From: Candidatus Daviesbacteria bacterium RIFCSPLOWO2_01_FULL_39_23
GTDB lineage: Bacteria; Patescibacteriota; Microgenomatia; Daviesbacterales; UBA10151
Direction: 5' to 3'
Length of the DNA stretch: 64,000 bases
NCBI GenBank assembly: GCA_001776935.1
Contig: MFDN01000005.1
Span: 2,505-66,504, forward strand
This document shows positions 1,258 to 47,775 of the stretch, one piece after another. Within the stretch, counting starts at the first letter, position 1. Every line of letters begins with the position of its first letter. The position numbers were made by a program, and so were the translations under genes. The notes below the pieces were generated by a model, which ran no database searches, was not told the DNA's origin, and saw only the letters and a list, made by a program, of their open reading frames with translations.

Positions 1258-1359
1258 ATTTTTGCTATTAGCTTTTAGCTGTTAGCTATTTGCTGCTAAA
1301 AGCGAACAGCCTGCCCGCAATGCTACGCATAGCGTCGCAGGCGGGCCAATAGCGAATAG

Positions 1360-2211
1360 CTACTTAGTCCTTTCTACTAAATACTCTGCCATCTGCTGTA
1401 ATAATTTCCTCATTTTTATATCTTTAGTAATTTCCGGCAACATTTTCTTAGTTTGACTTATATATTTATCCGCTTCATTTTGTGCCGCAGTCATCCCTCC
1501 AATCCAACCCGCCTCATTGTCTAAAATATCATCCTTTATCTGAAAAGCAATCCCGATTTTTTCCCCAAATTTAGCCAAATGTTTCAACCATTGTTCGCCT
1601 GCCCCGGCCAAAGTTGCCCCCAAAACAAGCGGCCCGGAGACAGAATACTGCGCAGTCTTGTATTTAGCAACTACCAGGCTATCCCCTTTCTCCACATCCA
1701 GCATCTGTCCTATGGCAGTATTGAGCAGGATACCGGAGAGATATTTTAAAACTTCATTCTTCTTGCTATCCGGAAACCTGCTTTCCGCAATAATTCTTGT
1801 TGCCAGGAAAAACCCCCCGTCTCCAAGACAAATAGTCCGGGATATGCCTTTATGATCAGCCCCAAGAGCCTTATAGAGCGAAGGCTTGCCCCGCCTGACT
1901 TCACTCTGATCTATAACATCATCATGAGCCAAAAATGCGCTGTGAAATATTTCATAAGCTGCAGCAATTTTAATAATAGAGCTTTCAATCTGAGGACTGA
2001 TGACTGACGACTCCTTCCCTATCTCATATCCCAAAACCACTAACATCCCTCTAATCCTCTTTCCCCCGCGGCAACTGTCAATAAATTTATCAACCAATGG
2101 TAATAAACCATTGCTGATTACGCTAATTTCTGTTCTCCAGACAGCTAAAATCTTATTCAGCTCTTCATTAATCTTTGTAATATTTTTTTGGTAAAATTCC
2201 TCAAAATCCAT
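1360..2211 (-). CDS. Polyprenyl diphosphate synthase (FPP/GGPP synthase family)
   Basis: 283 aa. Two Asp-rich motifs (FLAHDDVID and FQIKDDILD) typical of trans-prenyltransferases. Contains an in-frame ctgatgactgacgac heptamer repeat. Confidence 0.85.
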   Translation of the reverse strand: MDFEEFYQKNITKINEELNKILAVWRTEISVISNGLLPLVDKFIDSCRGGKRIRGMLVVLGYEIGKESSVISPQIESSIIKIAAAYEIFHSAFLAHDDVIDQSEVRRGKPSLYKALGADHKGISRTICLGDGGFFLATRIIAESRFPDSKKNEVLKYLSGILLNTAIGQMLDVEKGDSLVVAKYKTAQYSVSGPLVLGATLAGAGEQWLKHLAKFGEKIGIAFQIKDDILDNEAGWIGGMTAAQNEADKYISQTKKMLPEITKDIKMRKLLQQMAEYLVERTK

Positions 2212-2240
2212 TTTTCTAATTTAACACATTCCGGGTAAAA

Positions 2241-3437
2241 GTGGTAAAATCCAAGCTTATGCGCACTAAAATTAATCTTCGCGATTTTAACTCTGCCCAA
2301 AACAGGCGGGAATTTCTGGAAAAAGAACTGGATATTAGACTGGATAATATTGGCTGTTTCAGTTTTCCGGAAGATCAGGCTGTAGACAGAAACATCGAGA
2401 ACCTGATCGGAGCCACTCAAATCCCCTTGGGAGTTGCCGGACCATTATTGTTAGCGAAAAGCGAAAAGCGAAAAGCGAAAAGCTATTTTATTCCCCTTGC
2501 TACCACCGAAGGTGCCCTTGTAGCTTCGGTTTCCAGGGGATGCAAGGCAGTAAACGAGGCTGGCGGAGCAATGGTATTTGTGGAAAATACCGGGATTACG
2601 CGGGGCCCTGTTTTTAAAGCAGATAATTTAGAAAAATCCTTTAAAGCAAAAGCCTGGATCGAAAAAAATTTTAAAACCCTGGCCAAAGCAGCTGAAAGCA
2701 CTTCATCTCACCTGAAACTGCTTAAAGCAGAATACCAAATAACAGGCAGGAATTTATTTGTCAGGTTTTATTTTGATACTGCTGATGCCATGGGCATGAA
2801 TATGGCAACCATTGCCACTGGAGAAATGGTGAAAATAATTGAAAACAAAACAGGCGTCAAATGCATATCTTTATCAGGCAACTTTTGTATTGACAAAAAA
2901 CCTTCATATTTAAATTTTATTCTGGGAAGGGGCAAAAAGGTTTGGGCCGAAAGCATCTTACCTAAAAAGCTGGTTATTGATACTTTAAAAGTTACTCCTC
3001 AGGAAATTGCGGAAGTAGTTGAAAGAAAATGCCACATAGGCTCTATCATATCCGGATCTTTAGGCTACAACTCTCATTTCGCTAACATCGTTGCCGCTAT
3101 TTTTGCCGCCACCGGTCAGGACCTGGCTCATGTAGTAGAAGCAAGTATGGGAGTTACTTCAGCTGAGGTGCTGGAAAATGGGGACCTTTATTTTTCCATC
3201 TATCTCCCCTCTTTGGTAGTCGGCACTGTAGGAGGAGGCACGCATTTACCTACCCAGCAGGAAGCTTTAAAAATAATGCAGGTTTGTGATGTGCTAGAAT
3301 ATTCTCAAGTTGTCGGGGCAGCAGTATTGGCAGGCGAGCTTTCACTTTTGGCCTCACTAGCAGAAGGCTCGCTGATAAAAGCACATAGACAATTAGGAAG
3401 GAAGGAGCGAAGTCGCGAGTCAACCAAAGCAATTTGA
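2241..3437 (+). CDS. HMG-CoA reductase (class I-like)
   Basis: 398 aa. ENLIGxxQIPLGVAGPL and DAMGMN motifs. In-frame (agcgaaa)x4 repeat encoding AKSEKRKAKS at 2455-2486. Confidence 0.85.
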   Translation: MVKSKLMRTKINLRDFNSAQNRREFLEKELDIRLDNIGCFSFPEDQAVDRNIENLIGATQIPLGVAGPLLLAKSEKRKAKSYFIPLATTEGALVASVSRGCKAVNEAGGAMVFVENTGITRGPVFKADNLEKSFKAKAWIEKNFKTLAKAAESTSSHLKLLKAEYQITGRNLFVRFYFDTADAMGMNMATIATGEMVKIIENKTGVKCISLSGNFCIDKKPSYLNFILGRGKKVWAESILPKKLVIDTLKVTPQEIAEVVERKCHIGSIISGSLGYNSHFANIVAAIFAATGQDLAHVVEASMGVTSAEVLENGDLYFSIYLPSLVVGTVGGGTHLPTQQEALKIMQVCDVLEYSQVVGAAVLAGELSLLASLAEGSLIKAHRQLGRKERSRESTKAI

Positions 3438-3554
3438 GGATTTTGTGTGCAGTCCTACTTCACAAAATTCTCATATAGCAAGGCTAGAGAGAACTATCAT
3501 GTTGCAGTATTAACTAACCGAGCGGTGCTTTGTGACCGCGACGAGCGACCATCT

Positions 3555-4598
3555 ATGACTGGAATTGTTTCATACGGAGTTTACATACCAAAATACAGAA
3601 TAAAGCCCTCACAAGTGGCTCATGCCTGGGGCAAAGAAGTCAAAGGGGTAGAAAACTCTTTGGGAGTTTTTGAAAAAGCAGTAGCATCCGTAGATGAAGA
3701 TGCAGTAACTTTAGCAGTTGAGTCAAGTTTTAGAGCCTTAACAAACGGGCAAATTGAACCGGAAAAAATTGGCGCTATCACAATTGGTTCTGAATCACAC
3801 CCTTATGCTGTTAAACCCTCCTCTACCACAGTAGCCGGCATTTTAGGTATGCAGGGTGAATATCTGGCAGTTGATTTGGAATTTGCCTGTAAAGCCGGCA
3901 CTGCCGGAATACAACTCCTTTCCTCTTTGGTTGAAGCCAAAAAAGCCCAATATTGCCTGGCTATAGGTTCAGATGTGGCACAGGCCAAGCCTTCGGATGT
4001 TTTGGAATATACTGCCGGATCTGCTGCTGCAGCTTTTATCTTAGGCCGTGATAACTTGATTGCCGAGCTTTTAGATTTTACCTCTTATTCATCTGATACC
4101 CCTGATTTTTGGAGAAAAGACAACGAAAAATTCCCTTCCCATGCCGGCAGGTTTACCGGCGGTCCGGCTTATTTTGCCCATGTTGGCAAAGCCTCAGAGC
4201 TTATATTTGAAAAAACTAAAATGAAACCTTCTGATTTTGATTATGCTGTTTTTCATATGCCAAACGGAAAATTCCCCAAAGAGGCAGCCAGAAAATTAGG
4301 CTTCAGTGAACAACAGCTTAAACCAGGCTTTGTGGTACCTTTTATCGGTAACCCCTACTCTGCCTCATCAATGGTAGGACTTGCAGCTACTCTGGATATT
4401 GCCAAAAATGGTGATAAGATTTTTGTCTGTTCCTACGGCTCAGGAGCAGGTGCTGATGCTTTTGTTTTTGAAGTAACAAAAAATATTACCGCTCACCAGA
4501 CTAAAAACAAAGAAAGTGTGGCAAAACAGATTAAGAATAAACAATATATAGACTATTCATTGCTGGCTAAGAATATTATTAGCAAGTATAGGATTTAA
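3555..4598 (+). CDS. HMG-CoA synthase, archaeal type
   Basis: Starts MTGIVSYGVYIPKYRI. Thiolase-fold condensing enzyme. The ORF-track start at 3447 is a GTG inside a 150-bp interspersed repeat, so the ATG at 3555 is preferred. Confidence 0.8.
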   Translation: MTGIVSYGVYIPKYRIKPSQVAHAWGKEVKGVENSLGVFEKAVASVDEDAVTLAVESSFRALTNGQIEPEKIGAITIGSESHPYAVKPSSTTVAGILGMQGEYLAVDLEFACKAGTAGIQLLSSLVEAKKAQYCLAIGSDVAQAKPSDVLEYTAGSAAAAFILGRDNLIAELLDFTSYSSDTPDFWRKDNEKFPSHAGRFTGGPAYFAHVGKASELIFEKTKMKPSDFDYAVFHMPNGKFPKEAARKLGFSEQQLKPGFVVPFIGNPYSASSMVGLAATLDIAKNGDKIFVCSYGSGAGADAFVFEVTKNITAHQTKNKESVAKQIKNKQYIDYSLLAKNIISKYRI

Positions 4599-4742
4599 GA
4601 AGAGTCAAGAGACTAGCAACTAGAGTCAAGGAAAATAATACTTGACCCATTCGGCTTCGCCAAATCTGACTTGGCTTCGCTCAGGGTCATCCTGAGTATA
4701 GTCGAAGGATTGACTCTAGACTCTAGCGACTAGTCACTAATT

Positions 4743-5894
4743 ATGAAGATTAAAGTTTTAGGTACCGGTTTAACAAAATTTGGAGAGCTTTGGGACAAAT
4801 CACTTTTTGATTTGGCACAGGAGGCAGCTTTGGAAGCTATTGGCGATTCGCATTTAGCTGTTAACCAAATTGAAGCTGTCTTTGTGGCTAATATGTTATC
4901 CGGGAAATTATCCGGACAAGATCACCTGGGAGCAGTCGTAGCTTCTAATTTAGGCTTATCCGGCGCCTCTTTTAGAATAGAAGCAGCCTGCGCTTCCGGG
5001 GGCCTGGCAGTACACTTGGCCATCCAATCACTTCTTTCAGGCACTTATAAAAAGGTCCTGGTTGTGGGAGTGGAAAAAATGACTGATTCCCCTGCTTCAG
5101 AGATTACTTCTGCTTTAATGGGCGCTGGCTCGCAGACAGAAAGGCTGGCCGGCTTAACTTTTCCCGGCCTGTATGCTTTGATGGCCAAAGCCCATATGCA
5201 AAAATACGGCACCACCAAAAATGAACTGGCTCAGGTGGCTGTTAAAAACCACTATCATGCTTCTTTAAACGATAAAGCCCAATTTCCCTATGAAGTTACA
5301 GAAGAAAAGGTCCTGGAAAGTTCCTGTATCTGCACCCCTTTTACCCTGTTTGATGCCTCCCCTGTTTCAGACGGCGCAGGAGCTTTGGTTTTATCAGCAG
5401 ATGATGAACCTGGGAGCCTGCCGGCCGGCAGGCAGGTTTTCATCAGCGGGTCAGCTGTTGCAACCGACACCATTGACCTTGCCAACAGAAAATCATTGAC
5501 AGAAATTACAGCAACTCAAACAGCTTCTCAGAAAGCCTTAAAACAGGCAGGAGTGGAAATAAAAGATATTAAAGTGGCAGAAGTTCACGATTGCTTTACC
5601 ATCGCGGAAATTTTGGCCATGGAAGATTTGGGTTTTTGCCAAAAAGGCGAAGGAGGCAGGTTTATTGCCAAAGGCACCACTAAACTGGGAGGGAAATTAC
5701 CCGTAAACACCTCAGGAGGCTTAAAAGCCTGCGGTCATCCGGTGGGAGCTACCGGTGTTAAACAAATTGTAGAAATAACTAATCAATTAAGGGGAAATTT
5801 GGGCAAAAGGCAGGTCAAAGGAGCCAATGTCGGCCTAACTCAAAATGTGGGCGGAACAGGCGCAACAGTAGTAGTACATGTACTACAAAATTAA
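4743..5894 (+). CDS. Acetyl-CoA C-acetyltransferase (archaeal-type thiolase)
   Basis: 383 aa. Thiolase fold with catalytic Cys in the EAACASGG region. Sits next to HMG-CoA synthase and DUF35, as in archaeal mevalonate clusters. Confidence 0.8.
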   Translation: MKIKVLGTGLTKFGELWDKSLFDLAQEAALEAIGDSHLAVNQIEAVFVANMLSGKLSGQDHLGAVVASNLGLSGASFRIEAACASGGLAVHLAIQSLLSGTYKKVLVVGVEKMTDSPASEITSALMGAGSQTERLAGLTFPGLYALMAKAHMQKYGTTKNELAQVAVKNHYHASLNDKAQFPYEVTEEKVLESSCICTPFTLFDASPVSDGAGALVLSADDEPGSLPAGRQVFISGSAVATDTIDLANRKSLTEITATQTASQKALKQAGVEIKDIKVAEVHDCFTIAEILAMEDLGFCQKGEGGRFIAKGTTKLGGKLPVNTSGGLKACGHPVGATGVKQIVEITNQLRGNLGKRQVKGANVGLTQNVGGTGATVVVHVLQN

Positions 5895-5998
5895 CAATTT
5901 ACAATGTACAATTTACAATTGAATTCACAATCTATATTTTTGTTTTCTGCTTTGTACATTCTACATTTTACATTGTACATTGAAGGCAACGCCGACCT

Positions 5999-6298
5999 AT
6001 GAACAGCCCGGTACAAATTTGGAGATCGCATAAAAACTTACATAACTACCTTGGGAAACAAGGCAGGCTTTTGGTGTGGACTAAAATATTCATTGCCCCC
6101 TCCGGTTTTGAGCATCAAACTCCCTATATTGTTGGAATTGTAGAATTTGCTGACAAAGAAAAATTGCCTTTGCAGATTGTAGATTGCGAAGAAGAATCGT
6201 TAAAACCAAATCAAAAAGTTAAAGTAGTTATTAGAAAAATAGGCAAAGTAAAATCAGAAGATGTGATTGAATACGGGCTCAAAGCAAAACCTTTATGA
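5999..6298 (+). CDS. DUF35 OB-fold scaffold protein of the thiolase/HMG-CoA synthase complex
   Basis: 99 aa, OB-fold-like. Its stop overlaps the mvk start by 4 nt. Its position matches the archaeal thiolase-HMGCS-DUF35 trio. Confidence 0.55.
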   Translation: MNSPVQIWRSHKNLHNYLGKQGRLLVWTKIFIAPSGFEHQTPYIVGIVEFADKEKLPLQIVDCEEESLKPNQKVKVVIRKIGKVKSEDVIEYGLKAKPL

Positions 6299-7308
6299 AG
6301 ACCTCCGGCAGGACAATTACAGTTTCTGCCCCGGGAAAAATACACCTGCTTGGCGAACATTCTGTAGTATATGGGAAGCCTGCTTTGCTTACGGCTATAA
6401 ATCTCAGGACCAATGTCATCCTGACGGCAAAACCCGAAGGATCTCTCGCGAATGCAAGCTCCTCAGATGAACTGAGAGATTCTTCTCCGCCCACAGCTAC
6501 GCAGTTGCTGGCGGATCAGAATGACAAAATAAAGGCAATAATTGAACCTATCGTTAAAAAATATCTGAAAATAAAACAAATCCCGCCCTATAAATTGGAA
6601 ATTTCCTCAGAATTTCCTTTAGGAGCAGGGCTTGGCTCTTCTGCTGCCATATCTTCGGCATACATCGGCGCGCTCTTAACTTTTCTTAAAATTAAATGGG
6701 ACTTACACCTTATCAATAAACTTTCCTTTGAGGCTGAAAAAGCTTTTCATGGAAATCCTTCGGGCGCAGATAATGCCGCAGTAGTGTTTGGGGGCTTAAT
6801 CTGGTTTAGAAAAGAAACTACTGATTTAAAAATAATCCAACCGATTAACTCCCCTGTCCCTGCCAATATAGCTGGAAATTTTATACTGATTAACACCGGA
6901 AAACCAAAAGAAACTACCAAAGAAATGGTGGGATTAGTAAAATTAAGAGTCAAGAGTCAAGAGTCAAGAGTCAAGAAAATATTTGATCATCAGGAACAAT
7001 TAGTTAAAGAGCTTTTACTGACCATTCAATGCGGGAATGAAAAGGAATTAATCAAAATTATCAGGGCAGGAGAGAAAAACTTGGAAAAGATGGGTGTAGT
7101 TTCTTGGTATGTTCAATCTATTATCAGAAAAATAGAAAAAGCCGGAGGTGCTGCAAAAGTGTGCGGAGGAGGAGGAAAAACCAAAGCAACAGGTGTACTT
7201 TTGGCTTATCATCCGGAAAAATCAGTACTGGAAAAAATTGCAAAATCATATGATCTACCTTATTATACGGTTGTCTTGGGAGCCGAAGGCCTGCGAAAGG
7301 AAATATAA
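6295..7308 (+). CDS. mvk: Mevalonate kinase (GHMP kinase)
   Basis: N-terminal SAPGKIHLLGEHSVVYG and PLGAGLGSSAA GHMP motifs. Carries an in-frame MITE-like insertion (6414-6526) encoding ...SSPPTATQLLADQND..., and an (agagtca)x4 repeat. Confidence 0.8.
   Translation: MKTSGRTITVSAPGKIHLLGEHSVVYGKPALLTAINLRTNVILTAKPEGSLANASSSDELRDSSPPTATQLLADQNDKIKAIIEPIVKKYLKIKQIPPYKLEISSEFPLGAGLGSSAAISSAYIGALLTFLKIKWDLHLINKLSFEAEKAFHGNPSGADNAAVVFGGLIWFRKETTDLKIIQPINSPVPANIAGNFILINTGKPKETTKEMVGLVKLRVKSQESRVKKIFDHQEQLVKELLLTIQCGNEKELIKIIRAGEKNLEKMGVVSWYVQSIIRKIEKAGGAAKVCGGGGKTKATGVLLAYHPEKSVLEKIAKSYDLPYYTVVLGAEGLRKEI
6414..6526. mobile_element. MITE-like repeat (tgtcatYctga...tcaggatgaca family) inserted in-frame in mvk
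   Basis: Terminal motifs tgtcatcctgacg ... tcagaatgaca. Internal gccagcaactgcgtagctgtgggcggagaag is shared with the copies at 17271-17370 and 17685-17812. Confidence 0.7.
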
Positions 7309-7356
7309 CCACTTGATTGTACGATCGCACACTAAAATGATAAAAATGAAGCTAAA

Positions 7357-8358
7357 ATGAAAAGAGAAATAACAATATCAGCCCCCGGAAAATTAATGTT
7401 ACTTGGTGAACATGCTGTTGTTTATAACAGGCCCTGTATTGTTACAGCAGTCGGACAAAGAATGAGAGCTACAGTTGAGCTAACAGAGAAATCAACTTTC
7501 CAGCTTAATGCCCCGGATGTACAAATTGCAAATTATCAAAAGCCAATGGATCAATTAGGAATTGGCGATCTTCCCAAAGGAGCTAAATTTGTAGAAATTG
7601 CAGTGGTGAATTTCTTAAGGTCACTCCTTGAGTACTCAAGGAGTGACCTTGTAAAACCGGGAGTCAAGGTTTCTACGACCTCAGAATTTTCTTCCCAATT
7701 CGGTTTTGGCTCTTCCTCCGCCTCTACTGTTTGCGTAATTAAAGCCTTATCAGAAATTACAGAAGCAAATCTTAATAACAAAGAGATCTTTGATCTCGCG
7801 TACAAGACAGTGCTTGATATACAGGGCAAAGGTTCGGGATTTGATGCAGCAGCAGCCACCTTTGGAGGCACACTTTATTTTGTAACCGGAGGAAAAACAA
7901 TTGAACCTTTAAACATTGACTCCCTTCCTTTAATAGTTGGTTACAGCGGCATTAAAGCAGATACTGTCACCTTAATAAATCAGGTAAAAGAAAAAGCCGG
8001 GGGAAACCCCCAAGCTGTAGAAGATATTTATGACAATATTGGCAAGCTGGTAGAACAAGCCAAACTCGCTCTTTTGGGTAAAGATTGGCAAAGCTTAGGT
8101 GAGCTTATGAATGAAAACCAAAAACTACTAACCAAACTTGGAGTAAGCATAAACAAGCTTGATGATATGATTGCTGCCGCCCTTAAAGCAGGGGCATATG
8201 GGGCAAAGCTGTCCGGCGCCGGCGGCGGAGACTGTATGATAGCTTTAGCGCCGGAGGATAAGGTGCAAGCCGTCAAAGATGGAATAACCTCTGTCGGCGG
8301 CCAGATAATTGAGGTAGAAACGAATGCAGAAGGAGCTAGAATAGAGACGAGGGACTAG
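7357..8358 (+). CDS. GHMP kinase, probable phosphomevalonate kinase
   Basis: ISAPGKLMLLGEHAVVY and GFGSSSA motifs. Lies between mvk and mvd. Contains a perfect 34-bp palindrome in-frame (7617-7650). Confidence 0.65.
   Translation: MKREITISAPGKLMLLGEHAVVYNRPCIVTAVGQRMRATVELTEKSTFQLNAPDVQIANYQKPMDQLGIGDLPKGAKFVEIAVVNFLRSLLEYSRSDLVKPGVKVSTTSEFSSQFGFGSSSASTVCVIKALSEITEANLNNKEIFDLAYKTVLDIQGKGSGFDAAAATFGGTLYFVTGGKTIEPLNIDSLPLIVGYSGIKADTVTLINQVKEKAGGNPQAVEDIYDNIGKLVEQAKLALLGKDWQSLGELMNENQKLLTKLGVSINKLDDMIAAALKAGAYGAKLSGAGGGDCMIALAPEDKVQAVKDGITSVGGQIIEVETNAEGARIETRD
7617..7650. repeat. Perfect 34-bp palindrome within a coding region
   Basis: aaggtcactccttgagtactcaaggagtgacctt equals its own reverse complement. 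Encodes LRSLLEYSRSDLV in-frame, and the same peptide appears in the antisense ORF. Confidence 0.9.
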
Positions 8359-8373
8359 AGTCAAGAGACAAGT

Positions 8374-8730
8374 ATGAGAAACAACAACGGCTACAGAAAT
8401 TTAATCGCTTGGCAAAAAAGTAATCTACTAGCCCATTTTATTTATGATTTAACTGCAAAATTCCCCAAGGATGAGCTTTTTGGAATGACTTCACAAATGC
8501 GTCGCGCAGCTCTATCAGTTTGTGCTAATATTGCAGAGGGTTATAGCCGAAGAGGCTTAAAGGATAGAAGACATTTCTATCAAATGGCAATGGGATCTTT
8601 AACGGAACTGGAATTTTTTATTGATTTTGCTTATGAAAGAAAATTTATTAGTCATGTTGATTATGAGAAAATATTAGAGATACATATGGAAACAGCTCGA
8701 GTTTTAAGCGGCTTGTTAAAATCCACTTGA
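8374..8730 (+). CDS. Four-helix-bundle protein (23S rRNA IVS protein family, Avd-like), second copy
   Basis: 118 aa with QMRRAALSVCANIAEGYSR. Paralog of 183..548. Flanked by gagtcaag-family inverted repeats. Inserted between the PMK-like kinase and mvd. Confidence 0.75.
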   Translation: MRNNNGYRNLIAWQKSNLLAHFIYDLTAKFPKDELFGMTSQMRRAALSVCANIAEGYSRRGLKDRRHFYQMAMGSLTELEFFIDFAYERKFISHVDYEKILEIHMETARVLSGLLKST

Positions 8731-8758
8731 CTCTAGACTCTAGCGACTAGTCACTACT

Positions 8759-9739
8759 ATGAAAGCAACAGCCATTGCGCCGTCAAACATTGCTTTTACA
8801 AAATATTGGGGCCGCAAGGATGAAACCTTAAGATTGCCTGAAAATGGCAGCATTTGTATGTGTTTAAGCAATCTCCTGACCACTACTACTGTAGAATTTT
8901 CCCAAGGCTACCAGCAAGATGAAGTTACCATCAACGGAGGGGGGCTTGAGGCGGGTGAAGCTAAGCGGATTATCAAACATCTGGATAGAATCAGAAAACC
9001 GGCTGGCATTGACCGGAAAGCCAAAGTGGTATCAAATAATAATTTTCCCACTGGTACAGGTCTTTCTTCATCTGCTTCCGGTTTTGCCGCTTTAACTCTT
9101 GCTGCCAGCAAAGCCGCTGGTTTAGAGCTATCCGAGAAAGAATTATCAATACTGGCCCGCCAGGGCTCCGGCTCAGCTTGCAGATCTATCCCTTCAGGGT
9201 TTGTGGAATGGTTGGATGGAGACACCTCTGAGACTTCCTACGCTATCCAAATCTTCCCTCCTGGCCATTGGGCTATCATAGACATAGTGGCAGTTGTCTC
9301 AGAAGGAAAAAAAGAAGTTCCAACTTCGCAAGGAATGCAAAAAACACATTCTTCTCCATTTATGGCTGTCAGACTTTCCAAAATGAAAGAAAAAAATGAA
9401 AAAGTCAAAAAACTTATCAAAGAAAAAAATTTCAAAGAATTTGGGGAATTACTGGAACAGGAAGCCTTAGAACTTCACACCATTATGCTCACTCAAATTC
9501 CTCCGCTTATTTATTGGACTCCCGGGACTTTAAGGATAATGAAATTAACACCCTTTTGGAGACAGGAAGGAATACCTGTTTATTTTACCATCAATACCGG
9601 ACAGGATATTCACTTAATTTGTGAGTCAAAAAATGTTGAAAAAGTTAAATCCAAATTATCAGGGCTGGATTTTGTCAAAGATATTATTGTTAATGCTCCC
9701 GGAGAAGGCGCCAGACTTTCAAAAACCCACCTTTTTTAA
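8759..9739 (+). CDS. mvd: Diphosphomevalonate decarboxylase
   Basis: 326 aa. AFTKYWGRKDETLRLPENGSICM N-terminus and GTGLSSSASGFAAL GHMP motif. Confidence 0.8.
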   Translation: MKATAIAPSNIAFTKYWGRKDETLRLPENGSICMCLSNLLTTTTVEFSQGYQQDEVTINGGGLEAGEAKRIIKHLDRIRKPAGIDRKAKVVSNNNFPTGTGLSSSASGFAALTLAASKAAGLELSEKELSILARQGSGSACRSIPSGFVEWLDGDTSETSYAIQIFPPGHWAIIDIVAVVSEGKKEVPTSQGMQKTHSSPFMAVRLSKMKEKNEKVKKLIKEKNFKEFGELLEQEALELHTIMLTQIPPLIYWTPGTLRIMKLTPFWRQEGIPVYFTINTGQDIHLICESKNVEKVKSKLSGLDFVKDIIVNAPGEGARLSKTHLF

Positions 9740-10252
9740 AAGTTTCAAACCTTCCAAAGCCCATGGAGAATAGTTTTGCGGATTTTGTTCCATATCAGCA
9801 ACAACCTGCTGTTTATCCACCCATTTACATTCATAAGCTGTGTCCGGATTAAGGTCTATTTCCCCGTTATATTCCCCTACAAGCAAGGCATCATGTTCAT
9901 TTTCGCAATATTCCCCGAATTTGGCAAAATAATTAAAAAATCCCATATTCTTAAGAGGTATTTTTCCCTTAATGCCATACTCAACCTCTAAACTTCTATA
10001 TGTGGCCTCTTCCAAACTCTCACTGGTGCCGTCATTTTTGCGCAAGGGATGAGTTGAAGCTGTAAAATCCCAGATATTGTCAAAAATTTTATGCTTTCTC
10101 CTTTGCAAAAGCACTTGACCTTTGGAATTAAAAAGAAGCACGGTAATGGCCAAATGCCTTTTTCCTTCTCCGCTGTGTCCTGTCTCTTTTGGGATATATC
10201 CCAAAAAACTACCATTATCATCTACTGCTAAAATTGTTTGCCTCTTGCTCAT
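9719..10252 (-). CDS. idi: Isopentenyl-diphosphate isomerase type 1 (Nudix)
   Basis: Nudix-like hydrolase. The track ORF starts at a TTG overlapping the ZIP gene, so the ATG (MSKRQTILAV...) at 10252 is preferred. Confidence 0.65.
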   Translation of the reverse strand: MSKRQTILAVDDNGSFLGYIPKETGHSGEGKRHLAITVLLFNSKGQVLLQRRKHKIFDNIWDFTASTHPLRKNDGTSESLEEATYRSLEVEYGIKGKIPLKNMGFFNYFAKFGEYCENEHDALLVGEYNGEIDLNPDTAYECKWVDKQQVVADMEQNPQNYSPWALEGLKLLKKVGF

Positions 10253-10262
10253 GAGGAAAATT

Positions 10263-11036: not shown

Positions 11037-11102
11037 TCCTCAATGATAGATGCAACTCAGTCGCAATGCAACAGGATTAAAACTGTATAAAGGGGTAAGA
11101 AG

Positions 11103-11918: not shown

Positions 11919-11984
11919 CAGACTTTAAGTCTAAAGATAAAAAGCAGTCTTGTCAATATTTAGAAAGGAGCGAAGTCACAAACT

Positions 11985-13425: not shown

Positions 13426-13440
13426 AATCTAGTCAATCTC

Positions 13441-37105: not shown

Positions 37106-37126
37106 ACTTCTCTAATATCATCCTGA

Positions 37127-37242
37127 TAGTCCATTGGACCAGAAGGATCTCTCAACCCGCCGAAGGCGAGGCTCGCCTCTGGCGGCTTATTTGAGATACT
37201 ACTGACATTCGTCAGAGATTCTTCGCTACGCTCAGAATGACA
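37127..37242. mobile_element. MITE-like repeat (intergenic, between ABC ATPase and aldolase)
   Basis: tcatcctgatag...ggaccagaaggatctctc...ccgccgaaggcgaggctcgcctctggcgg...cttcgctacgctcagaatgaca. Internal GC-rich hairpin. Confidence 0.7.
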
Positions 37243-39293: not shown

Positions 39294-40437
39294 AATGATT
39301 TTTTACCAATTCTAAAATCTCTTTTTTGAATCTTTCTTTGGAAAACTTTTCAGCATTTTTTATACAGTCTTCCGGATCCCATCCAGAGGATGGTCCGCCT
39401 TGGGCGGAAAATTTTTGTAAAGCTTCCATTAAATCATCTGCTGTTGCTACACCAGGACCTCCATATAAAACGCCTGTTTTACCATCAATAACAGTTTCCA
39501 AAAAACCCCCTGAGGCAGGCGCTATTACCGGCGTACCAACAGCTTGTGCCTCAATTGAGGTAATCCCAAAATCCTCATCTTCTGCCGCGACTATCAGGGC
39601 TTTGGCATTTTGCAAAAGTTGAATTCTTTCTTCATCGCTCACCCATCCCAGAAATTCAGTGCTTTTAGCTTTTAGCTTTTCACTATTAGCTTTTAGCTCA
39701 TCTAATTGCGGACCTGTGCCAGCCACCTTAAGCGGCAAGCCCAACTTTCCGCAAGCCTCCACTACCACCTCCACTCCTTTCCCTCTTACCAGTCTACTCA
39801 ATACCAAAAAATAGCTTTTCGCTGCTAATGGCGAATGGCCAACAGCGAATAGCTCTAAATCCACTGGCGGGTAAATCACCACACTATCTCTTCTGTAGAA
39901 CTTTTTAATCCTTGCGGCGATATTTTTGGAATTGGCTATTAAAATATCCGGCCGCTGGGAAACTTCAAAATCATAAATCCGCATAAAATGATTAATAATC
40001 TCCCCACTTATTCTGGTCCACCAGTGTTTTTTGTAATTAAAGCTTGTGACGTAACCATACAAAAATCTGGGAGGGGTATGAATGTAACTTAAATGCAGAG
40101 TTTCGGGCTTGGTGATAACAGCTTTAGCTAAGTGAGTAGCAGATGAAGATGAAATCACCAAGTCGTATTCTGACAAATCAAAGCTTTCAAACATCATCGG
40201 TCCAAAAATCCGGAAAGGAGAAAGTAACCGGTTGGCAAAAGGAAATTTCTGAAACCAGGAAGTTCTAATGTCCCAACCTGCAAATCTTTTTCCATTTTCT
40301 CCCAGTTTCTCAGGATTATAATAAGCAGTAAAAAGGGGTGCCTGGGGAAAAATTTCATGCAAAACCTCCAAGACTCTTTCTGCTCCGCCGTACTCCCTTA
40401 AATAATCATGCACTAAAGCAACTTTTAAATTTTTCAT
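39280..40437 (-). CDS. Glycosyltransferase family 4
   Basis: GT-B fold with C-terminal E-x7-E region (EDFGITSIEAQAVGTPVIA). In-frame heptamer insertions encoding GHSPLAAKS and ELKANSEKLKAKS. Confidence 0.75.
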   Translation of the reverse strand: MKNLKVALVHDYLREYGGAERVLEVLHEIFPQAPLFTAYYNPEKLGENGKRFAGWDIRTSWFQKFPFANRLLSPFRIFGPMMFESFDLSEYDLVISSSSATHLAKAVITKPETLHLSYIHTPPRFLYGYVTSFNYKKHWWTRISGEIINHFMRIYDFEVSQRPDILIANSKNIAARIKKFYRRDSVVIYPPVDLELFAVGHSPLAAKSYFLVLSRLVRGKGVEVVVEACGKLGLPLKVAGTGPQLDELKANSEKLKAKSTEFLGWVSDEERIQLLQNAKALIVAAEDEDFGITSIEAQAVGTPVIAPASGGFLETVIDGKTGVLYGGPGVATADDLMEALQKFSAQGGPSSGWDPEDCIKNAEKFSKERFKKEILELVKNHYGKS

Positions 40438-41302: not shown

Positions 41303-42235
41303 ATGATCATGCTTAAAAAACTTACTTTTGCCCCTTTTTTCCTGATAGCTTTTTCTTTACTGATCCCGCAGATTAATTCCCTTCTTGCTTCTTATGATTT
41401 TATTTTTTCCTTATCAGCAAACAGTTTAATTCAGCTTATTAAAATTGCCTTTCTCATATCCCTTGCCTGTTTATTCTTTTCCCTGTTTGTTACTTTGGCA
41501 TCAGACTTAAAAATAATCCTTCCAGTCATTATTCTGTCTGCTCTTTTACCGTTACTTTTCCTAAATACCAGCCTTGCTATTATTTTAGTTGTAACCATAA
41601 CAATTAGTTTATTTCTGACTTATCTGTCTCTTCAAAGCACGCTAAAAAGCTATCTGACATTTCAACCTGCTGCTCTTTTAGGGCCGGCTGTCAGGCATTT
41701 ATCAGGCTTTTTAATCTTATCTTTTTGTTTAATCTATTTTTTCTCAAGCAGTAAAATTATCGCCCAAAACGGCTTTCAAATCCCTGATTCATTAATTGAT
41801 ACAGCCCTCAAAATGACTCCTCTTCCGGCCCAGAACCAATCAGGACAAACGGAACAAACCCAATTGCCTGCCATTTCCTCTGATCAAATCAAACTGCTGA
41901 AAAACAACCCTGAATTGTTAAAACAATCAGGCATCGACCCAAAACTGCTGGATAGTTTATCTGTTCCCCAAGAAGCTATTGAAGCGCCGGCAGATTTAAT
42001 TAAAGACACCATCAAACAAACAGTCAAAGACCAGGTTCAAAATTTTATTAAACCCTATGCCTCTTTTATTCCGGCTGTTCTAACCGTGCTTTTATTTATT
42101 ACCCTGCAATCTATTACTTCTTTTATCAATCTATTAATCTATCCCTTGATTTGGTTAACTTTTTTGATTTTGGAAAAAGTAGGCTTTACAAAATTCACAA
42201 CAGAAATGAGGCCGGTAAAAAAACTTATGGTTTAA
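41303..42235 (+). CDS. Hypothetical polytopic membrane protein
   Basis: Multiple TM helices plus a hydrophilic Q/P-rich segment. The start was chosen to avoid overlap with the divergent gene. Confidence 0.4.
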   Translation: MIMLKKLTFAPFFLIAFSLLIPQINSLLASYDFIFSLSANSLIQLIKIAFLISLACLFFSLFVTLASDLKIILPVIILSALLPLLFLNTSLAIILVVTITISLFLTYLSLQSTLKSYLTFQPAALLGPAVRHLSGFLILSFCLIYFFSSSKIIAQNGFQIPDSLIDTALKMTPLPAQNQSGQTEQTQLPAISSDQIKLLKNNPELLKQSGIDPKLLDSLSVPQEAIEAPADLIKDTIKQTVKDQVQNFIKPYASFIPAVLTVLLFITLQSITSFINLLIYPLIWLTFLILEKVGFTKFTTEMRPVKKLMV

Positions 42236-44532
42236 ATTTTCAGAAGCTTCATTTCTCCCCAGTTTGGGCCGACTTTTAAATCAACAACCACCGGCACAGA
42301 CAACTTTAAAGCATCTTCCATTCTACCTTTAACCATTTTGGCTACATCCTCAACGCATTTTGGATCACATTCAAACAAAAGCTCATCATGAACCTGCAAA
42401 ATTAGTCGGCAGCTTTTAGCTATTGGCTGTTGGATATTAGCTGCCAATTGCGAACCGCTAACAGCTAACAGCTCCTTATCTATCTCCACCATTGCCTTTT
42501 TAATCATATCCGCCGCCGTACCCTGTACCGGATGATTAACAGCTGCCCGCTCGCCTGCTGATTTAATCATCCTGTTGTCTGCTTTCAGTTCCGGAATATA
42601 CCTTTTCCTGCCCCAGATTGTCTCAACAAAACCTCTTTCATATCCAAATGCCAAAGTTTGCTCCATCCACTCCTTAACTTTTGGAAATTGCGCAAAATAT
42701 TCTAAAATATATTGCTGGGCAATCTCAAACGGGACACTTAATTGCCTGGATAGCGCCCGCGGGCCCTGACCGTAAAGGGTGGCAAAATTTATGGTTTTAC
42801 CAACCATCCTTTGTTCTTTTGTCACCTTGCCCAAAGGGATGCTGAAAACTTTAGAAGCTGTGGCAGTATGTATATCCACTCCTTTTTTGAAAGCTTCTTT
42901 TAAACCCGGGTCATCTGCCAAATGCGCCATTATCCGGAGCTCTATCTGCGAATAATCAGCTGCCAGTAAAATTTTACCTTTGGGAGCAATGAAAGCTTTG
43001 CGTATTTCCGAACCAGCTTCGCCTTTAACCGGGATATTTTGTAAATTTGGATCTTTGGAAGAAATCCTGCCTGTAGCAGCTCCTTCCACATTAAAGGTGG
43101 AATGAATCCGTCCATCTTCCGCCACTGCTTTTGGCAAAGCATCAATATATGTGGAAACCAGTTTAAAAAGCTGCCGGTATTGGAGCAGTAACGATATTGC
43201 AGGATGAGCAGATGAAAGTTCGCGCAAAGTATCTTCATCAGTGGAACGGCCGGTTTTAGTTTTTCTGACAACCGGCAACTTTAATTCATCAAAAAGCACC
43301 TCAGAAAGTTGTTTTGGACTGTTCAGATTTATCTCATGCCCTATTTCTGAGTAAATATTCTCCTCAAGCTTTGACAATTTGGCTTTCAGTTCCTTGCCAA
43401 ACTTATTTAAAAACTTAAGATCAACCAACACTCCGGCTTTTGACATTTTTTGCAGAACTTGCCCAACTTCCTTATCCAAATCGGTTGTAGTTTCATTCTG
43501 CATCGCTCGGGGGCCTGTCAGCTCGGTTAGGGAGTCGTTTAGACTCCCGCTCGCCGTATTCCGCGAGCCCCGCCGTGCATCCTCGTTCGTTTCACTCACT
43601 GCGGCTACGCGTCGGGATCCCTCCTCGCTGCCACCCCTCGCTACTCCATCCAGTCTTCCTATCAGGCTCTTAAACTCCAATTCTTCAAATAGTTGAACAA
43701 CTTTTTCCCTGTCAAAATCATGCACCTTGCATTTCCCCAGGTCGAGCTTAATCGGAGCCTTCAGATCTAGAGTAGCCAGTTTTTTACTCATCACGGCAGA
43801 TTCTGCGCCTTCGGCGAGTAAAGCCTGGGTTCGGGCGGGCAGAGTTTTTAAATTTTCCGGTTTGTATATCCCTTCAATTGTTTCAAATTGATGGATCAAT
43901 TTAGTAGCTGTAACATCCCCAATCCCTGCAACCCCCGGGATATTATCCGATGCATCCCCTGCCAAACCCTTATAATCAGTAAGTTGCGCCGGATAAAAAC
44001 CATACTTTGCTACAAATTCCTCAACTCCATATAAACCCACATCAGCAATGGTTTTTTTAGGCATAAAAATTTTGGTGCGCTCATCAATAAGCTGCATAAT
44101 ATCTCTATCCCCTGTCACGATAATAATTTCCAATTTACAATCCGCCAGCTGGCGGACAATTTTCAATTTTCTTGCCTGCACAGTCAGGGTGCCAATCAAA
44201 TCATCTGCTTCATATCCGGATAATCTAAACTCCGGAATATTGAAAGCATGAACCACCTCGTGAACCCTTTTATATTGGCCGGATAAACCGTCATCAGCAG
44301 GCCCCCGGGTGGCTTTATATTGGGTATAGGCCTGGTGCCGGAACGTCGGACCCTTTTCATCCCAGGCAACAGCGATAAACTGCGGCACAAGCTCTGAAAT
44401 TGCTTTTAAAATCATTGAAGAAAATCCATAAACTGCATTAACCAGCTCACCCTTTGAGGTGGTGAAAGGAGGAACAGCATGATAGGCCCTATGAAGCAAA
44501 GCATTACCGTCAACCAAAACCAATCGTTTCAT
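42232..44532 (-). CDS. polA: DNA polymerase I (5'-3' exonuclease + polymerase domains, no 3'-5' exonuclease domain)
   Basis: The 5'-nuclease N-terminus (LVDGNALLHRAYHA, GDRD) is followed directly by the polymerase domain (RSTDEDTLREL, HTATAS, QVHDEL). A 47-aa in-frame GC-rich repeat insertion lies at the domain junction. A heptamer insert lies near the C-terminus. Confidence 0.9.
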   Translation of the reverse strand: MKRLVLVDGNALLHRAYHAVPPFTTSKGELVNAVYGFSSMILKAISELVPQFIAVAWDEKGPTFRHQAYTQYKATRGPADDGLSGQYKRVHEVVHAFNIPEFRLSGYEADDLIGTLTVQARKLKIVRQLADCKLEIIIVTGDRDIMQLIDERTKIFMPKKTIADVGLYGVEEFVAKYGFYPAQLTDYKGLAGDASDNIPGVAGIGDVTATKLIHQFETIEGIYKPENLKTLPARTQALLAEGAESAVMSKKLATLDLKAPIKLDLGKCKVHDFDREKVVQLFEELEFKSLIGRLDGVARGGSEEGSRRVAAVSETNEDARRGSRNTASGSLNDSLTELTGPRAMQNETTTDLDKEVGQVLQKMSKAGVLVDLKFLNKFGKELKAKLSKLEENIYSEIGHEINLNSPKQLSEVLFDELKLPVVRKTKTGRSTDEDTLRELSSAHPAISLLLQYRQLFKLVSTYIDALPKAVAEDGRIHSTFNVEGAATGRISSKDPNLQNIPVKGEAGSEIRKAFIAPKGKILLAADYSQIELRIMAHLADDPGLKEAFKKGVDIHTATASKVFSIPLGKVTKEQRMVGKTINFATLYGQGPRALSRQLSVPFEIAQQYILEYFAQFPKVKEWMEQTLAFGYERGFVETIWGRKRYIPELKADNRMIKSAGERAAVNHPVQGTAADMIKKAMVEIDKELLAVSGSQLAANIQQPIAKSCRLILQVHDELLFECDPKCVEDVAKMVKGRMEDALKLSVPVVVDLKVGPNWGEMKLLKI
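43501..43642. repeat. GC-rich interspersed element inserted in-frame in polA
   Basis: Reverse-complement homolog of 15693-15830 with an extra internal segment. Encodes GVARGGSEEGSRRVAAVSETNEDARRGSRNTASGSLNDSLTELTGPRA. Confidence 0.75.
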
Positions 44533-46358: not shown

Positions 46359-47097
46359 AATGCCCAAACTCATATTCAACTTTGCTTTTCCTACGGCCCC
46401 AAAGCAAAATTTTCAACCCAAAAAGAAGCATTTTTAAAACATATTTTCTCCTGCCCTCATGTTTTATTCTTCTGACAGATGTATGCATCCTGACATTTTT
46501 AAGCCAAATCAGCTTACCGCCCTTTTTGATAATCCGATGTACCAAATCCTGGTCCTCCGCCACAATCACAGTTTCATCAAAGCCTCCTGCTTTTTCAAAA
46601 ATTTCCCGTCTTATACATAAATTCCGGGCCGGGATCACAGGCCAGATGTATTGAGAAAGCTTAAACCCTAAATCTTCCGCTTTAAAATATAAAATATCTT
46701 TCCAGTAGTTTGAATCAGGCACGGAGCTGGCTGCAGCTACATCCGGCTTCCTGATAAGAATATCTGCAAAATATTTTTCTAAAGTATCTGGCTGCCCCAA
46801 AATCATGTCAGCATCCAGAAATAACAGGTGTCCCGAGGTAGTTTTTTTGACTCCTAAATTACGCTGCCTGGAAATGGTGGATTTGGGGATACGAAAATAA
46901 CGCAGTCCGGCAAACTGCTTTTGTCTCTTTTTAACCTCTTCAATTGTTTTATCTTTTGAGAATGCATCAACTACTACCAGCTCTTTTGGCCGAACTGTCT
47001 GTTTGATAAGTGAATCCAGCAGCCTCCCGATGAAATGTTCTTCGTTTAATGTGGGTATGATAATAGCCAAATCAACTACTGCTTTACCGTCTGACAT
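46342..47097 (-). CDS. Glycosyltransferase family 2
   Basis: LAIIIPTLNEE...VVVDAFSKDKT...FLDADM (DxD) motifs. Confidence 0.75.
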   Translation of the reverse strand: MSDGKAVVDLAIIIPTLNEEHFIGRLLDSLIKQTVRPKELVVVDAFSKDKTIEEVKKRQKQFAGLRYFRIPKSTISRQRNLGVKKTTSGHLLFLDADMILGQPDTLEKYFADILIRKPDVAAASSVPDSNYWKDILYFKAEDLGFKLSQYIWPVIPARNLCIRREIFEKAGGFDETVIVAEDQDLVHRIIKKGGKLIWLKNVRMHTSVRRIKHEGRRKYVLKMLLFGLKILLWGRRKSKVEYEFGHFNSET

Positions 47098-47738
47098 TTT
47101 TGAGCCCTTTCCGAATAAACCATTCTTTCAACTTCATTCAAAGCCGAAGAGCTGGCTTCTTTTGATAAAAATGTACATGCAGAAAGCTTTGATATATTAA
47201 GCTCATTAGCAACAAGAGGATGCATCTGGCTAATTTTATCAATAAATTTACCTTCCCACTCTGACAATCTGCTTATCGCAAGCCTGATAGACATACGCGC
47301 ATTTGGATTTGAAATTTGATCATAAACTGTTTGCAAAGTGCTCATCTGCAAGACAATTTCACCAGCGGCCTTCCCTGCAAAACCGCTATCTAAGGGACTC
47401 AGTAAATTGGCAATTTCCTGTAAATGCCAACTGTATCTTTCCAAGGTGGGCAGAATTAAATCCGCGCGGGATACAGAAACTAAGCTCTTCACTTCTCTTA
47501 TCCTTCGGGTTGAAAACTCTATCTGTCTTAGAGCCTTTATGTTTGTGGTACCGGCAAACTTAAGTTCCAAATTTTCCCGGATTGATTTCAAAAAGTACAA
47601 AGGCGAAGCCGGATGAATCCTAGCCTGCCCAATGGCATCAGCTTGGGCATAGGCAGGAAAAATGTAAAATGTAAAATGTAAAATGTAAAATGTAAAAAGC
47701 AGAAGAATCAATCTAATTGTAAATTGTACATTGTACAT
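47076..47738 (-). CDS. Hypothetical secreted protein
   Basis: Predicted signal peptide (MYNVQFTIRLILLLFTFYILHFTFYIFPAYAQA) partly encoded by the aatgtaa heptamer repeat. The track ORF extends further from a GTG. Confidence 0.3.
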   Translation of the reverse strand: MYNVQFTIRLILLLFTFYILHFTFYIFPAYAQADAIGQARIHPASPLYFLKSIRENLELKFAGTTNIKALRQIEFSTRRIREVKSLVSVSRADLILPTLERYSWHLQEIANLLSPLDSGFAGKAAGEIVLQMSTLQTVYDQISNPNARMSIRLAISRLSEWEGKFIDKISQMHPLVANELNISKLSACTFLSKEASSSALNEVERMVYSERAQKCQTVKQ

Positions 47739-47775
47739 TGTAAATTTCCTTACCGTCTTATTATATAATACTCCA

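Follow-up and report, generated by a model that had tools for sequence, protein, structure and literature searches.

Inverted arrays of tandem heptanucleotides in a Candidatus Daviesbacteria genome and their association with PF05635 genes

Knowledge of tandem heptanucleotide repeats in cyanobacteria goes back to about 1990. Proteins of the PF05635 family (23S rRNA intervening-sequence proteins, hereafter IVPs) have a separate history: their open reading frames (ORFs) were first found in 23S rRNA intervening sequences that are excised by RNase III, and Avd is a pentameric, basic, nucleic-acid-binding barrel that acts as an accessory to diversity-generating retroelements (DGRs). Rickettsia palindromic elements (RPEs), reportedly described by Ogata et al. 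in 2000, are said to be selfish DNA inside protein-coding genes, and they are not known to have an associated gene. According to PMC4679880 and PMC4692102, the survey of Mrazek et al. 2007 found heptamers to be the most abundant class of bacterial long simple sequence repeats (SSRs) and is also the source of the idea that polymerase slippage generates them; PMC4679880 further cites it for the observation that coding regions most often hold repeats whose unit length is a multiple of three. Xanthomonas carries the heptamers GGGAATC and (GGGANTN)n, for which convergent inverted repeat pairs have been noted, and Nostoc carries GGGGA(T/C)T (PMC4692102). In Beggiatoaceae, TAACTGA repeats lie directly upstream of start codons (MacGregor, PMC4679880). 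Here we describe tandem arrays of 7-nt units in a 64,000-nt stretch of Candidatus Daviesbacteria bacterium RIFCSPLOWO2_01_FULL_39_23 (contig MFDN01000005.1 of assembly GCA_001776935.1, positions 2,505 to 66,504 of the forward strand; hereafter the window), where many of the arrays form inverted, pairable hairpins, some enclose the two PF05635 genes and about two thirds lie in frame within conserved genes.

The original prediction for this DNA had reported many tandem-repeat families with a shared 7-bp period and staked its claim on an excess of such arrays in tandem-repeat finder output. That excess was found: period 7 accounts for 38 of the 69 Tandem Repeats Finder rows for the window, six more rows have period 14 or 21, and any other period reaches about six rows at most. 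Among exact tandem duplications, period 7 contributes 35, period 6 contributes 24 and period 8 a single one, and exact runs of at least three copies are confined to period 7. Local lag-k scoring of periods 2-30 against 30 dinucleotide-preserving shuffles of the window gave 22 strong period-7 arrays (661 nt) versus 0.1 expected; the other periods yielded no array or one array each, except for 14, itself twice the period. Strong arrays occur at about 34 per 100 kb, and all of them lie between 1 and 48 kb. The period-7 excess is thus confirmed as real, specific to 7 nt and large. Period-7 arrays are present at every coordinate listed in the prediction, and further arrays absent from it lie at 151-166, 526-548, 8343-8372, 14708-14738, 16079-16112, 30934-30961 and 32817-32848.

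These arrays are heptanucleotide tandem repeats and resemble the short tandemly repeated repetitive (STRR) and long-SSR class, as had been proposed. They share with it tandem 7-nt units in 2 to about 6 copies, several families per genome, the period-7 excess and fixed variable positions within the unit ([TGC]AA[ATC]AGC here, (GGGANTN)n in Xanthomonas). They are not cyanobacterial STRRs in the strict sense. The host belongs to the candidate phyla radiation (CPR), about two thirds of the window arrays lie in frame in conserved genes, and none of the published units, whether the canonical STRR units (CCCCAGT, TTGGTCA, CAACAGT) or those of Beggiatoa and Xanthomonas, occurs as tandem copies in the window.

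About four unit families can be distinguished, written on the sense or right-arm strand as [TGC]AA[ATC]AGC, NNGAGTC, NNNTCAG and the AT-rich NNNNTAC / NNNNGTA, and each combines invariant core positions with variable ones. The families are therefore fewer and closer than the "unrelated" ones first proposed: several listed families are the two arms of one hairpin (e.g., agagtca and gactctt), and others differ by one base (e.g., TATTAGC versus TATCAGC). At about 14 of the roughly 30 array loci, an array is followed after 10 to 130 nt by its reverse complement, and the pair can fold as a hairpin. Folding energies relative to shuffles correspond to z scores of -3.5 to -5.5 for most pairs of the window and reach -7.6 in the relative L001, a syntenic Daviesbacteria locus whose orthologues are 60-91% identical to those of the window. 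Intergenic pairs mostly occupy the whole spacer, from the stop codon of one gene to 1-6 nt before the start of the next (the hairpin at 5889-5982, 16 nt before the next start codon, is an exception), and leave no space for a Shine-Dalgarno sequence before that start. The hairpin at 1259-1360, for instance, occupies the spacer between two minus-strand genes and contains a 35-nt GC-rich core at 1311-1345, and the element at 4599-4742 starts at a stop codon and ends 3 nt before the next ATG. Per nucleotide, array density is about four times higher in intergenic than in coding sequence, and 22 of 35 arrays lie entirely within ORFs. The in-gene arrays keep the reading frame, contain no stop codons and are translated; all host ORFs are intact.

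Both PF05635 genes of the window are enclosed by an array and its downstream reverse complement (Table 1). The two proteins, IVP1 and IVP2, share 35% identity, and the arms around each gene pair at about -30 kcal/mol (z -5.7 for IVP1 and -6.0 for IVP2). IVP1 is flanked by CAG units and IVP2 by GAGTC units, each family also occurring as ORF-less arrays elsewhere in the window, and the cassettes sit in the mevalonate operon and beside isoprenoid genes. Solved relatives in the Protein Data Bank, 2GSC and 2RLD, were both deposited with five chains. The NCBIfam Avd model scores 23.8 and 28.8 bits on the two proteins, below its cut-off of 80, and the Pfam bAvd match is weak. In other Daviesbacteria, IVP genes likewise lie in inverted heptamer arrays, and in one of these loci, L164, an IVP2-like gene in a different gene neighbourhood is flanked by the same 30-nt right arm, TTGACTCTAGACTCTAGCGACTAGTCACTA.

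This right arm recurs at 4710-4742, at 8727-8761 and at L164 10356-10390, each time followed 2-3 nt later by the ATG of a different, unrelated gene. It is possible that the element provides or restricts signals for the start of translation. The arm (TTGACT...) was also considered as a promoter, a reading rejected because on inspection its spacing does not fit the sigma-70 type. L164 also carries units of the TAGGGTA / CCCTAAA type, a match to the telomere motif of plants, both around its second IVP gene and at ORF-less sites (8228-8259, 8747-8779, 10690-10719 and 20309-20339).

The organisation recalls that of repetitive extragenic palindromic (REP) doublets forming hairpins and their REP-associated tyrosine transposases (REPIN-RAYT; PMC3116915). 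In both, inverted doublets form hairpins (about 14 pairs in 48 kb here), many dispersed copies lack an ORF, a small associated gene is flanked by inverted repeats, and repeat families pair with gene paralogues. Signs of dispersal come from sequence comparison, with one composite copy found at two sites and one cassette in two gene neighbourhoods. Unlike in REPIN-RAYT, the gene encodes a PF05635 / TIGR02436 four-helix bundle rather than a Y1/HUH (IS200/IS605-like) transposase, and the arms are tandem 7-nt arrays rather than a single REP of 20-40 nt. A 23S rRNA intervening sequence similarly holds a PF05635 (S23p) ORF between inverted flanks able to form a long stem, and a CPR example is mentioned in bioRxiv 10.1101/2024.02.27.582315; the cassettes described here, in contrast, lie beside protein-coding genes rather than in an rRNA helix, and their stems are tandem 7-8-nt repeats. 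With the Avd of DGRs, the IVPs share a homologous fold and family, seen as weak model matches, whereas the window contains neither a reverse transcriptase nor a template/variable repeat pair.

The association extends beyond the window. Scanning metagenomic contigs with the IVP1 and IVP2 proteins gave 80 loci with GC contents of 31-68%, picked by similarity to the Daviesbacteria IVPs, with taxa unassigned and array thresholds of our own. Of the 103 period-7 arrays at these loci, 80 are no more than 150 nt away from the IVP ORF. After redundancy removal, 61 loci remained, with an array upstream of the IVP gene in 30 and downstream in 39. The best period was 7 in 22 upstream and 22 downstream cases, 8 in 4 and 10, and 14-15 in 3 and 7. 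Only 1.8% of random 130-nt windows from IVP loci carry an array, and among intergenic segments an array is present in 45 of 103 adjacent to an IVP gene versus 7 of 60 elsewhere in the same loci. The enrichment beside PF05635 is thus about 25-fold relative to random windows and, relative to other intergenic sequence, about 4-fold per segment and 8-fold per nucleotide. When upstream and downstream units have the same period, they are reverse complements in 15 of 22 cases and direct repeats in 2, and 41 distinct canonical units occur across 49 IVP loci.

Sequenced plasmids give a similar picture across phyla. Searching 72,556 plasmids by tblastn yielded 31 records with IVP homologues, most of them from Nostocales, and eight flanks were inspected. 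Inverted heptamer arrays surround the IVP gene on plasmids of Nostoc punctiforme, Trichormus variabilis, Calothrix and Riemerella; the alpha and gamma plasmids of Nostoc PCC 7120 have an array only downstream, the Gemmatirosa gene has an inverted array of 8-nt units, and the Pseudanabaena gene is flanked by very long arrays. Within the first 50 kb of pNPUN01 of Nostoc punctiforme, nine arrays exceed the threshold at period 7 and one at the other periods between 4 and 12. Most of these arrays form inverted pairs. The IVP gene lies inside one such pair, next to which is an ORF-less pair built from the same unit. Among solved structures, the one nearest to the IVP profile is that of XCC0516 from Xanthomonas campestris ATCC 33913 (2GSC), and GGGAATC repeat number 15 overlaps the annotated start of that gene (Rehm et al., supplementary table); the Xanthomonas case comprises one gene, with an array on just one of its sides. 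PF05635 itself is very large, with at least 7,800 matches at E <= 1e-10 among the matches listed. A separate sample of 80 carB loci contained no IVP genes, and there the density of period-7 arrays is 10.3 per 100 kb in CPR-titled loci versus 2.1 in the others. Our literature searches, whose coverage was incomplete, found no paper linking PF05635 with tandem or heptamer repeats and none on heptamer repeats in CPR/Patescibacteria; a prior description is possible. On the Pseudanabaena galeata plasmid pPg_01 (L173, 45877-47018), the IVP gene is flanked by (AAAAGCT)15 and (AAAAGCC)n and lies between cas6 and cas4, a position that may account for the listing of "23S rRNA IVP" among CRISPR-associated domains in PMC10910872.

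Copies inside genes are lineage-specific segments in loops or linkers, as seen by alignment with homologues and solved structures. The sites comprise two in CarB, the interdomain linker of CarA (17 aa inserted), two insertions and a third array site in Fpg, a position before the QVHDE motif of DNA polymerase I (PolA), and a loop of HMG-CoA reductase, where the gene is 2 aa longer than the solved homologue. RPEs are similar in being translated, in-frame palindromic insertions in surface loops and linkers of conserved genes, with intergenic copies as well; they differ in being 100-150 bp long, in not being built from heptamers and in occurring in another phylum. In the Borg extrachromosomal elements of archaea, PMC9879509 describes fast-evolving tandem repeats that likewise add disordered peptide segments to proteins; there, in contrast, coding units are divisible by three and hairpin pairing is not described. 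The two arrays at 47659-47746 together encode a hydrophobic, signal-peptide-like N-terminus, MYNVQFTIRLILLLFTFYILHFTFYIFPAYA, of a DUF5667 protein.

Some copies are demonstrably related by common ancestry, which the prediction had set aside in favour of a shared generating mechanism. The 97-nt composite hairpin at 22923-23019, in carB, has an intergenic counterpart at 1264-1360 with 87% identity; every difference lies in the heptamer arms, and the 35-nt GC-rich core is identical. This element, at least, was copied en bloc. The AT-rich copies at 5888-5981 and 47661-47747 match each other, and the 30-nt right arm is identical at 4710-4739 and 8727-8756. The 35-nt GC-rich hairpin, CTGCCCGCAATGCTACGCATAGCGTCGCAGGCGGG (1311-1345 and 22938-22972), is nested at a unit boundary in two AGC-family heptamer hairpins and may be a separate small element that targets arrays.

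Comparison with L001 shows that units turn over faster than sites. At three orthologous sites (Fpg, upstream of Fic, and the CarA linker), position and period are kept and the units differ. The Fpg hairpin at 33058-33131 corresponds to a CAG-family hairpin in L001, with the loop AAAAGCAAAAA common to both; upstream of Fic, at the position of 19975-20048, L001 has a hairpin of another unit family. The fold-back is kept in both species at these two sites, and the CarA linker of L001 has a single arm. Some differences consist of one base repeated in all units (TATTAGC/TATCAGC, CAATTGA/CAAGTGA), and the arms therefore evolve in concert. Copy number also changes. Strain L082 differs from window positions 1-17003 by two mismatches and a single gap of exactly 7 nt, which removes one unit from the perfect (AAGAGTC)4.6 array of mevalonate kinase (6945-6976) and splits the gene by frameshift. 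Unless it is an assembly error, this gap is direct evidence of whole-unit slippage; the variant comes from a single assembly and, compared with phase-variable contingency loci, affects a housekeeping gene rather than a surface or virulence gene. Among the in-gene arrays compared, only this perfect one varies. Two other length variants were considered as array copy-number changes and rejected: in a 371-aa CarA the 7-aa insert lies elsewhere, away from the array, and in a 320-aa Fpg the difference is at the N-terminus. The CarA cluster variant P0005 (window gene 24478-25572) carries an extra 7 aa, RESSGLS, or 21 nt, near its N-terminus.

We favour, with a probability of roughly 0.55, the reading that the arrays belong to an IVP-associated, REPIN-like hairpin repeat element of tandem 7-nt units on which slippage acts. 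The full cassette would be an IVP gene between two inverted, pairable arrays, with two such cassettes in the window. ORF-less hairpins and single arms would spread, in the manner of miniature inverted-repeat transposable elements or REPINs, into the short intergenic spacers of a 90%-coding genome. Copies would also land in surface loops and domain linkers, where the survivors would be those that keep the frame and lack stop codons. The arrays would then gain and lose whole units by slipped-strand mispairing, and homogenisation of the two arms, changing in concert, would produce fast unit turnover with a persistent period and fold-back. ORF-less copies would on this account derive from or depend on IVP cassettes, and IVP would bind, process or mobilise the repeats.

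Several observations weigh against this account. An IVP gene is present at only two of the roughly 30 array loci of the window, and the two largest families, AGC and AT-rich TGTA, lack an IVP partner within the 64 kb. The IVP protein is small and helical and has no known catalytic activity, and the window arrays have no transposase, reverse transcriptase or recombinase next to them. About half of the metagenomic IVP loci have no array at the thresholds used. Unit similarity tracks IVP similarity only above about 75% protein identity; such co-variation, considered as a sign of recognition, was discarded, as it fits shared descent equally well. Three in-gene arrays (phosphoribosyltransferase, ligase and dihydroorotase) have exactly the length of the non-periodic L001 sequence, and such length-neutral arrays are predicted by neither insertion nor slippage. 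Degenerate in-gene arrays, searched for copy-number variants, were invariant within protein clusters of about 90% identity. The direction could also be the reverse, with IVP cassettes inserting into or needing pre-existing hairpins.

A broader version of the element reading is more tentative. PF05635 proteins would be the trans-acting partner of heptamer hairpins, each paralogue binding or processing arrays of its own 7-8-nt unit, perhaps one unit per IVP subunit, as a self-propagating, REPIN-RAYT-like system in Cyanobacteria, Bacteroidota, Xanthomonas, Gemmatimonadota and CPR. We regard this as possible, at well below even odds. If true, the STRR heptamer excess would be explained by protein-repeat pairing rather than by a polymerase property, as would the entry of arrays into coding sequence as blocks or length-neutral patches. 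The only explanation for heptamers in PMC4679880 and PMC4692102 is untested polymerase slippage, and the cross-phylum IVP link makes the question testable. The same link gives a first functional context to a very large family whose structures are solved and whose known function is confined to DGRs.

Slippage alone, with a polymerase that slips preferentially by 7 nt and arrays as independent mutational by-products without an associated gene, was the mechanism first proposed, and part of it stands. A constant period with a freely varying unit does imply a constraint at the level of mechanism, and the 7-nt indel between near-identical strains shows slippage by a whole unit. The higher array density in CPR-titled carB loci and a PolA in which Pfam finds no 3'-5' exonuclease domain are also in keeping with it, and paired +7 and -7 slips could yield length-neutral arrays. 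Slippage alone is nonetheless insufficient, because it leaves unexplained the inverted pairing, the in-frame blocks in essential genes, the length-neutral replacement and the cross-phylum PF05635 association. Stepwise birth of an array in an essential gene is implausible, because a one-unit shift inside a gene is a frameshift, as in the L082 mevalonate kinase. Slippage does not predict that arms change in concert at orthologous sites or that a 97-nt composite copy is dispersed to two sites. The PF05635 enrichment, moreover, holds at GC contents of 31-68%, hence with very different replication machineries, and includes periods of 8 and 14-15, and several CPR relatives have no arrays at all. As a complete explanation, we consider it unlikely.

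Selection for RNA stems in cis is compatible with the IVP-associated element and, as a replacement for it, distinctly improbable. The hairpins would be RNase III sites, operon-internal terminators or stabilisers, or occluders of start codons, with IVP as one cargo and the period as a by-product. Intergenic hairpins that reach from a stop codon to near the next start, the similar placement of the Beggiatoaceae repeats (MacGregor, PMC4679880), the persistence of hairpins at orthologous sites despite unit change and the pairing of arms around both IVP genes all accord with such a role. It does not account for the roughly two thirds of arrays that lie in ORFs, including partnerless single arms, where processing would destroy the mRNA, for frameshift-prone perfect arrays in essential genes, or for a tandem 7-nt periodicity that a regulatory stem does not need. 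The origin of PF05635 ORFs in RNase III-excised intervening sequences, noted above, is a further point in its favour. Selection on proteins for heptads, coiled-coil-like or disordered, starts from the arithmetic that three 7-nt units make 21 nt or 7 aa; in-gene arrays do read as heptads rich in K, S, E, A and L, and one forms the signal-peptide-like N-terminus mentioned above. This very improbable explanation was rejected, being contradicted by intergenic copies of the same unit families at about four times the coding density, by a period of 7 rather than 21 nt, by translation of both orientations in in-gene hairpins and by insertions that are lineage-specific additions to loops of conserved enzymes. 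An assembly or sequencing artefact was rejected as well, with a probability that is close to negligible. The source is a metagenome, and the 7-nt difference of L082 could be an assembly error; the same arrays, however, occur in independent assemblies, NCBI records and related species, finished genomes of cultured Nostoc, Trichormus and Riemerella also carry arrays, and the host ORFs are all intact. The arrays of the window are not an assembly artefact, because the independent assembly L081 matches it over 20.9 kb with one mismatch and no gap.

Table 1. Heptamer arrays, hairpins and IVP genes of the window (positions in nt; z, folding energy relative to shuffles)
Feature	Position	Strand	Description
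IVP1 left arm	146-182	+	CTTTCAG CTTTCAG TCATCAG TCGTCAG; ends 2 nt before ATG
IVP1 gene, 121 aa	183-548	+	PF05635 23S_rRNA_IVP / TIGR02436 four helix bundle protein, Avd-like
IVP1 right arm	526-564	+	CTGAAAG CTGATAG CTGACGA CTGACGA; overlaps IVP1 stop codon
Composite hairpin without ORF, AGC family	1259-1360	+	(GCTNTTN)n / (NAANAGC)n; z -4.0
Single-arm array	1990-2012	-	Sense TCGTCAG TCATCAG TCCTCAG; in frame in polyprenyl synthase gene
Perfect (AGCGAAA)4.4 array	2453-2483	+	In frame in HMG-CoA reductase loop
GAGTC-family hairpin without ORF	4599-4742	+	Left arm 4600-4630, right arm 4710-4739; z -3.7
AT-rich hairpin	5889-5982	+	(AATTTAC)n / (TACATTG)n between two operon genes; related to 47661-47747
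Perfect (AAGAGTC)4.6 array	6945-6976	+	In frame in mevalonate kinase
IVP2 left arm	8328-8373	+	AGAGACG AGGGACT AGAGTCA AGAGACA
IVP2 gene, 118 aa	8374-8730	+	PF05635, sub-threshold bAvd-like match
IVP2 right arm	8722-8760	+	TTGACTCTAGACTCTAGCGACTAGTCACTA; ends 2 nt before next gene's ATG
(AAATTGA)5 array	13939-13973	-	In frame in phosphoribosyltransferase; same length as non-periodic L001 orthologous sequence
AT-rich inverted array pair	14234-14347	.	Occupies entire intergenic spacer
(AAAAGTN)5 array	16079-16112	-	In frame in ATP-dependent DNA ligase; length-neutral versus L001
(NNGTCAG)4 array	16783-16809	-	In frame in ligase; 24-nt insertion versus L001
Hairpin (TAGCGTA)n / (TACGCTA)n	19975-20048	-	Ends 4 nt before Fic gene start; z -5.5
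AGC-family array	22693-22729	-	In frame in linker joining two CarB halves
Composite AGC-family hairpin	22923-23039	-	In frame in CarB; lineage-specific insertion; 35-nt core 22938-22972
GAGTC-family hairpin	25095-25180	-	Perfect (GAGTCAA)4 and inverted arm; 51-nt in-frame insertion, CarA interdomain linker
(GCTATAC)4.4 array	28575-28605	-	In frame in dihydroorotase; length-neutral versus L001
Inverted array pair NNNNGTA / NNNNTAC	30882-30961	.	Occupies recF-MFS spacer
(CAATTGA)4.6 array	32817-32848	-	In frame in Fpg; L001 has (CAAGTGA)2.5 at same site
AGC-family array	32989-33013	-	In frame in Fpg; insertion versus L001 and MutM
AGC-family hairpin	33058-33131	-	In frame in Fpg; z -4.2; loop AAAAGCAAAAA
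AGC-family array	39661-39698	-	In frame in glycosyltransferase
AGC-family hairpin	39814-39854	-	In frame in glycosyltransferase that also holds 39661-39698 array
AGC-family hairpin	42411-42492	-	About 15 aa inserted in frame into DNA polymerase I, immediately ahead of QVHDE motif
Perfect (ACATTTT)5.6 and (TACAATN)4.6 arrays	47659-47746	-	Overlap start codon of DUF5667 gene 47076-47738

The host is a groundwater bacterium of the CPR (Microgenomates), Candidatus Daviesbacteria. The CarB of the window shares 78% identity with its counterpart in a Candidatus Daviesbacteria metagenome-assembled genome, and exact protein look-ups lead to Candidatus Daviesbacteria GW2011 genomes from the Rifle aquifer; on this evidence, the best carB relative and the look-ups, a cyanobacterial origin was rejected. 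The window has a GC content of 40% and is 90% coding. Its housekeeping genes include a mevalonate pathway operon, carA, carB, pyrB, dihydroorotase, recF, fpg, fabD, an ATP-dependent ligase, polA, ftsH and trpS, among others, and an Rfam scan of the whole window found tRNA-Met only, with no rRNA. In this 90%-coding genome, repeat elements remodel loops of essential CPR enzymes (CarA, CarB, PolA, Fpg and ligase), and one-unit shifts in perfect arrays can knock out genes, which is relevant to annotation and to pseudogene calls in metagenome-assembled genomes. DNA polymerase I (42232-44532, minus strand) has only 766 aa, and Pfam assigns it 5'-3' exonuclease and polymerase domains and no 3'-5' exonuclease domain.

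Repeats not built from heptamers are also present. Small, dispersed GC-rich hairpins occur at 6473-6533, 17264-17322 and 17685-17738, at 17345-17370, 24395-24420 and 37217-37242, and at 26633-26667 and 37118-37152; among them are an element of 44-59 nt, TTCTCCGCCCACAGCTACGCAGTTGCTGGCGGATCAGAATGACA, and a relative of 26 nt, GATTCTTCGCTACGCTCAGAATGACA. In mevalonate kinase and ligase, several of these hairpins lie in frame, and similar peptides, SLRSG and AQNDR, mark insertions in the L001 orthologues. A 74-nt GC-rich repeat occurs with 86% identity at 15694-15766 and 43569-43641, one copy being intergenic and the other an in-frame part of DNA polymerase I, where it separates the 5'-exonuclease domain from the polymerase domain. 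Another dispersed element, about 147 nt long (3406-3552 and 13444-13590, 80% identity), starts with GCGAGTC GCGAGTC and has no Rfam match at E <= 1; its long terminal stem is accompanied by an inner hairpin that shows two compensatory pairs. Interspersed with the housekeeping genes are toxin-antitoxin genes (27809-28436, 50106-50489 and 55781-56056), comprising a HepT/MNT pair, a PIN domain protein and a Phd/YefM antitoxin. FtsH (50800-53928, minus strand) is interrupted ahead of its AAA domain by an intein that has a LAGLIDADG endonuclease domain.

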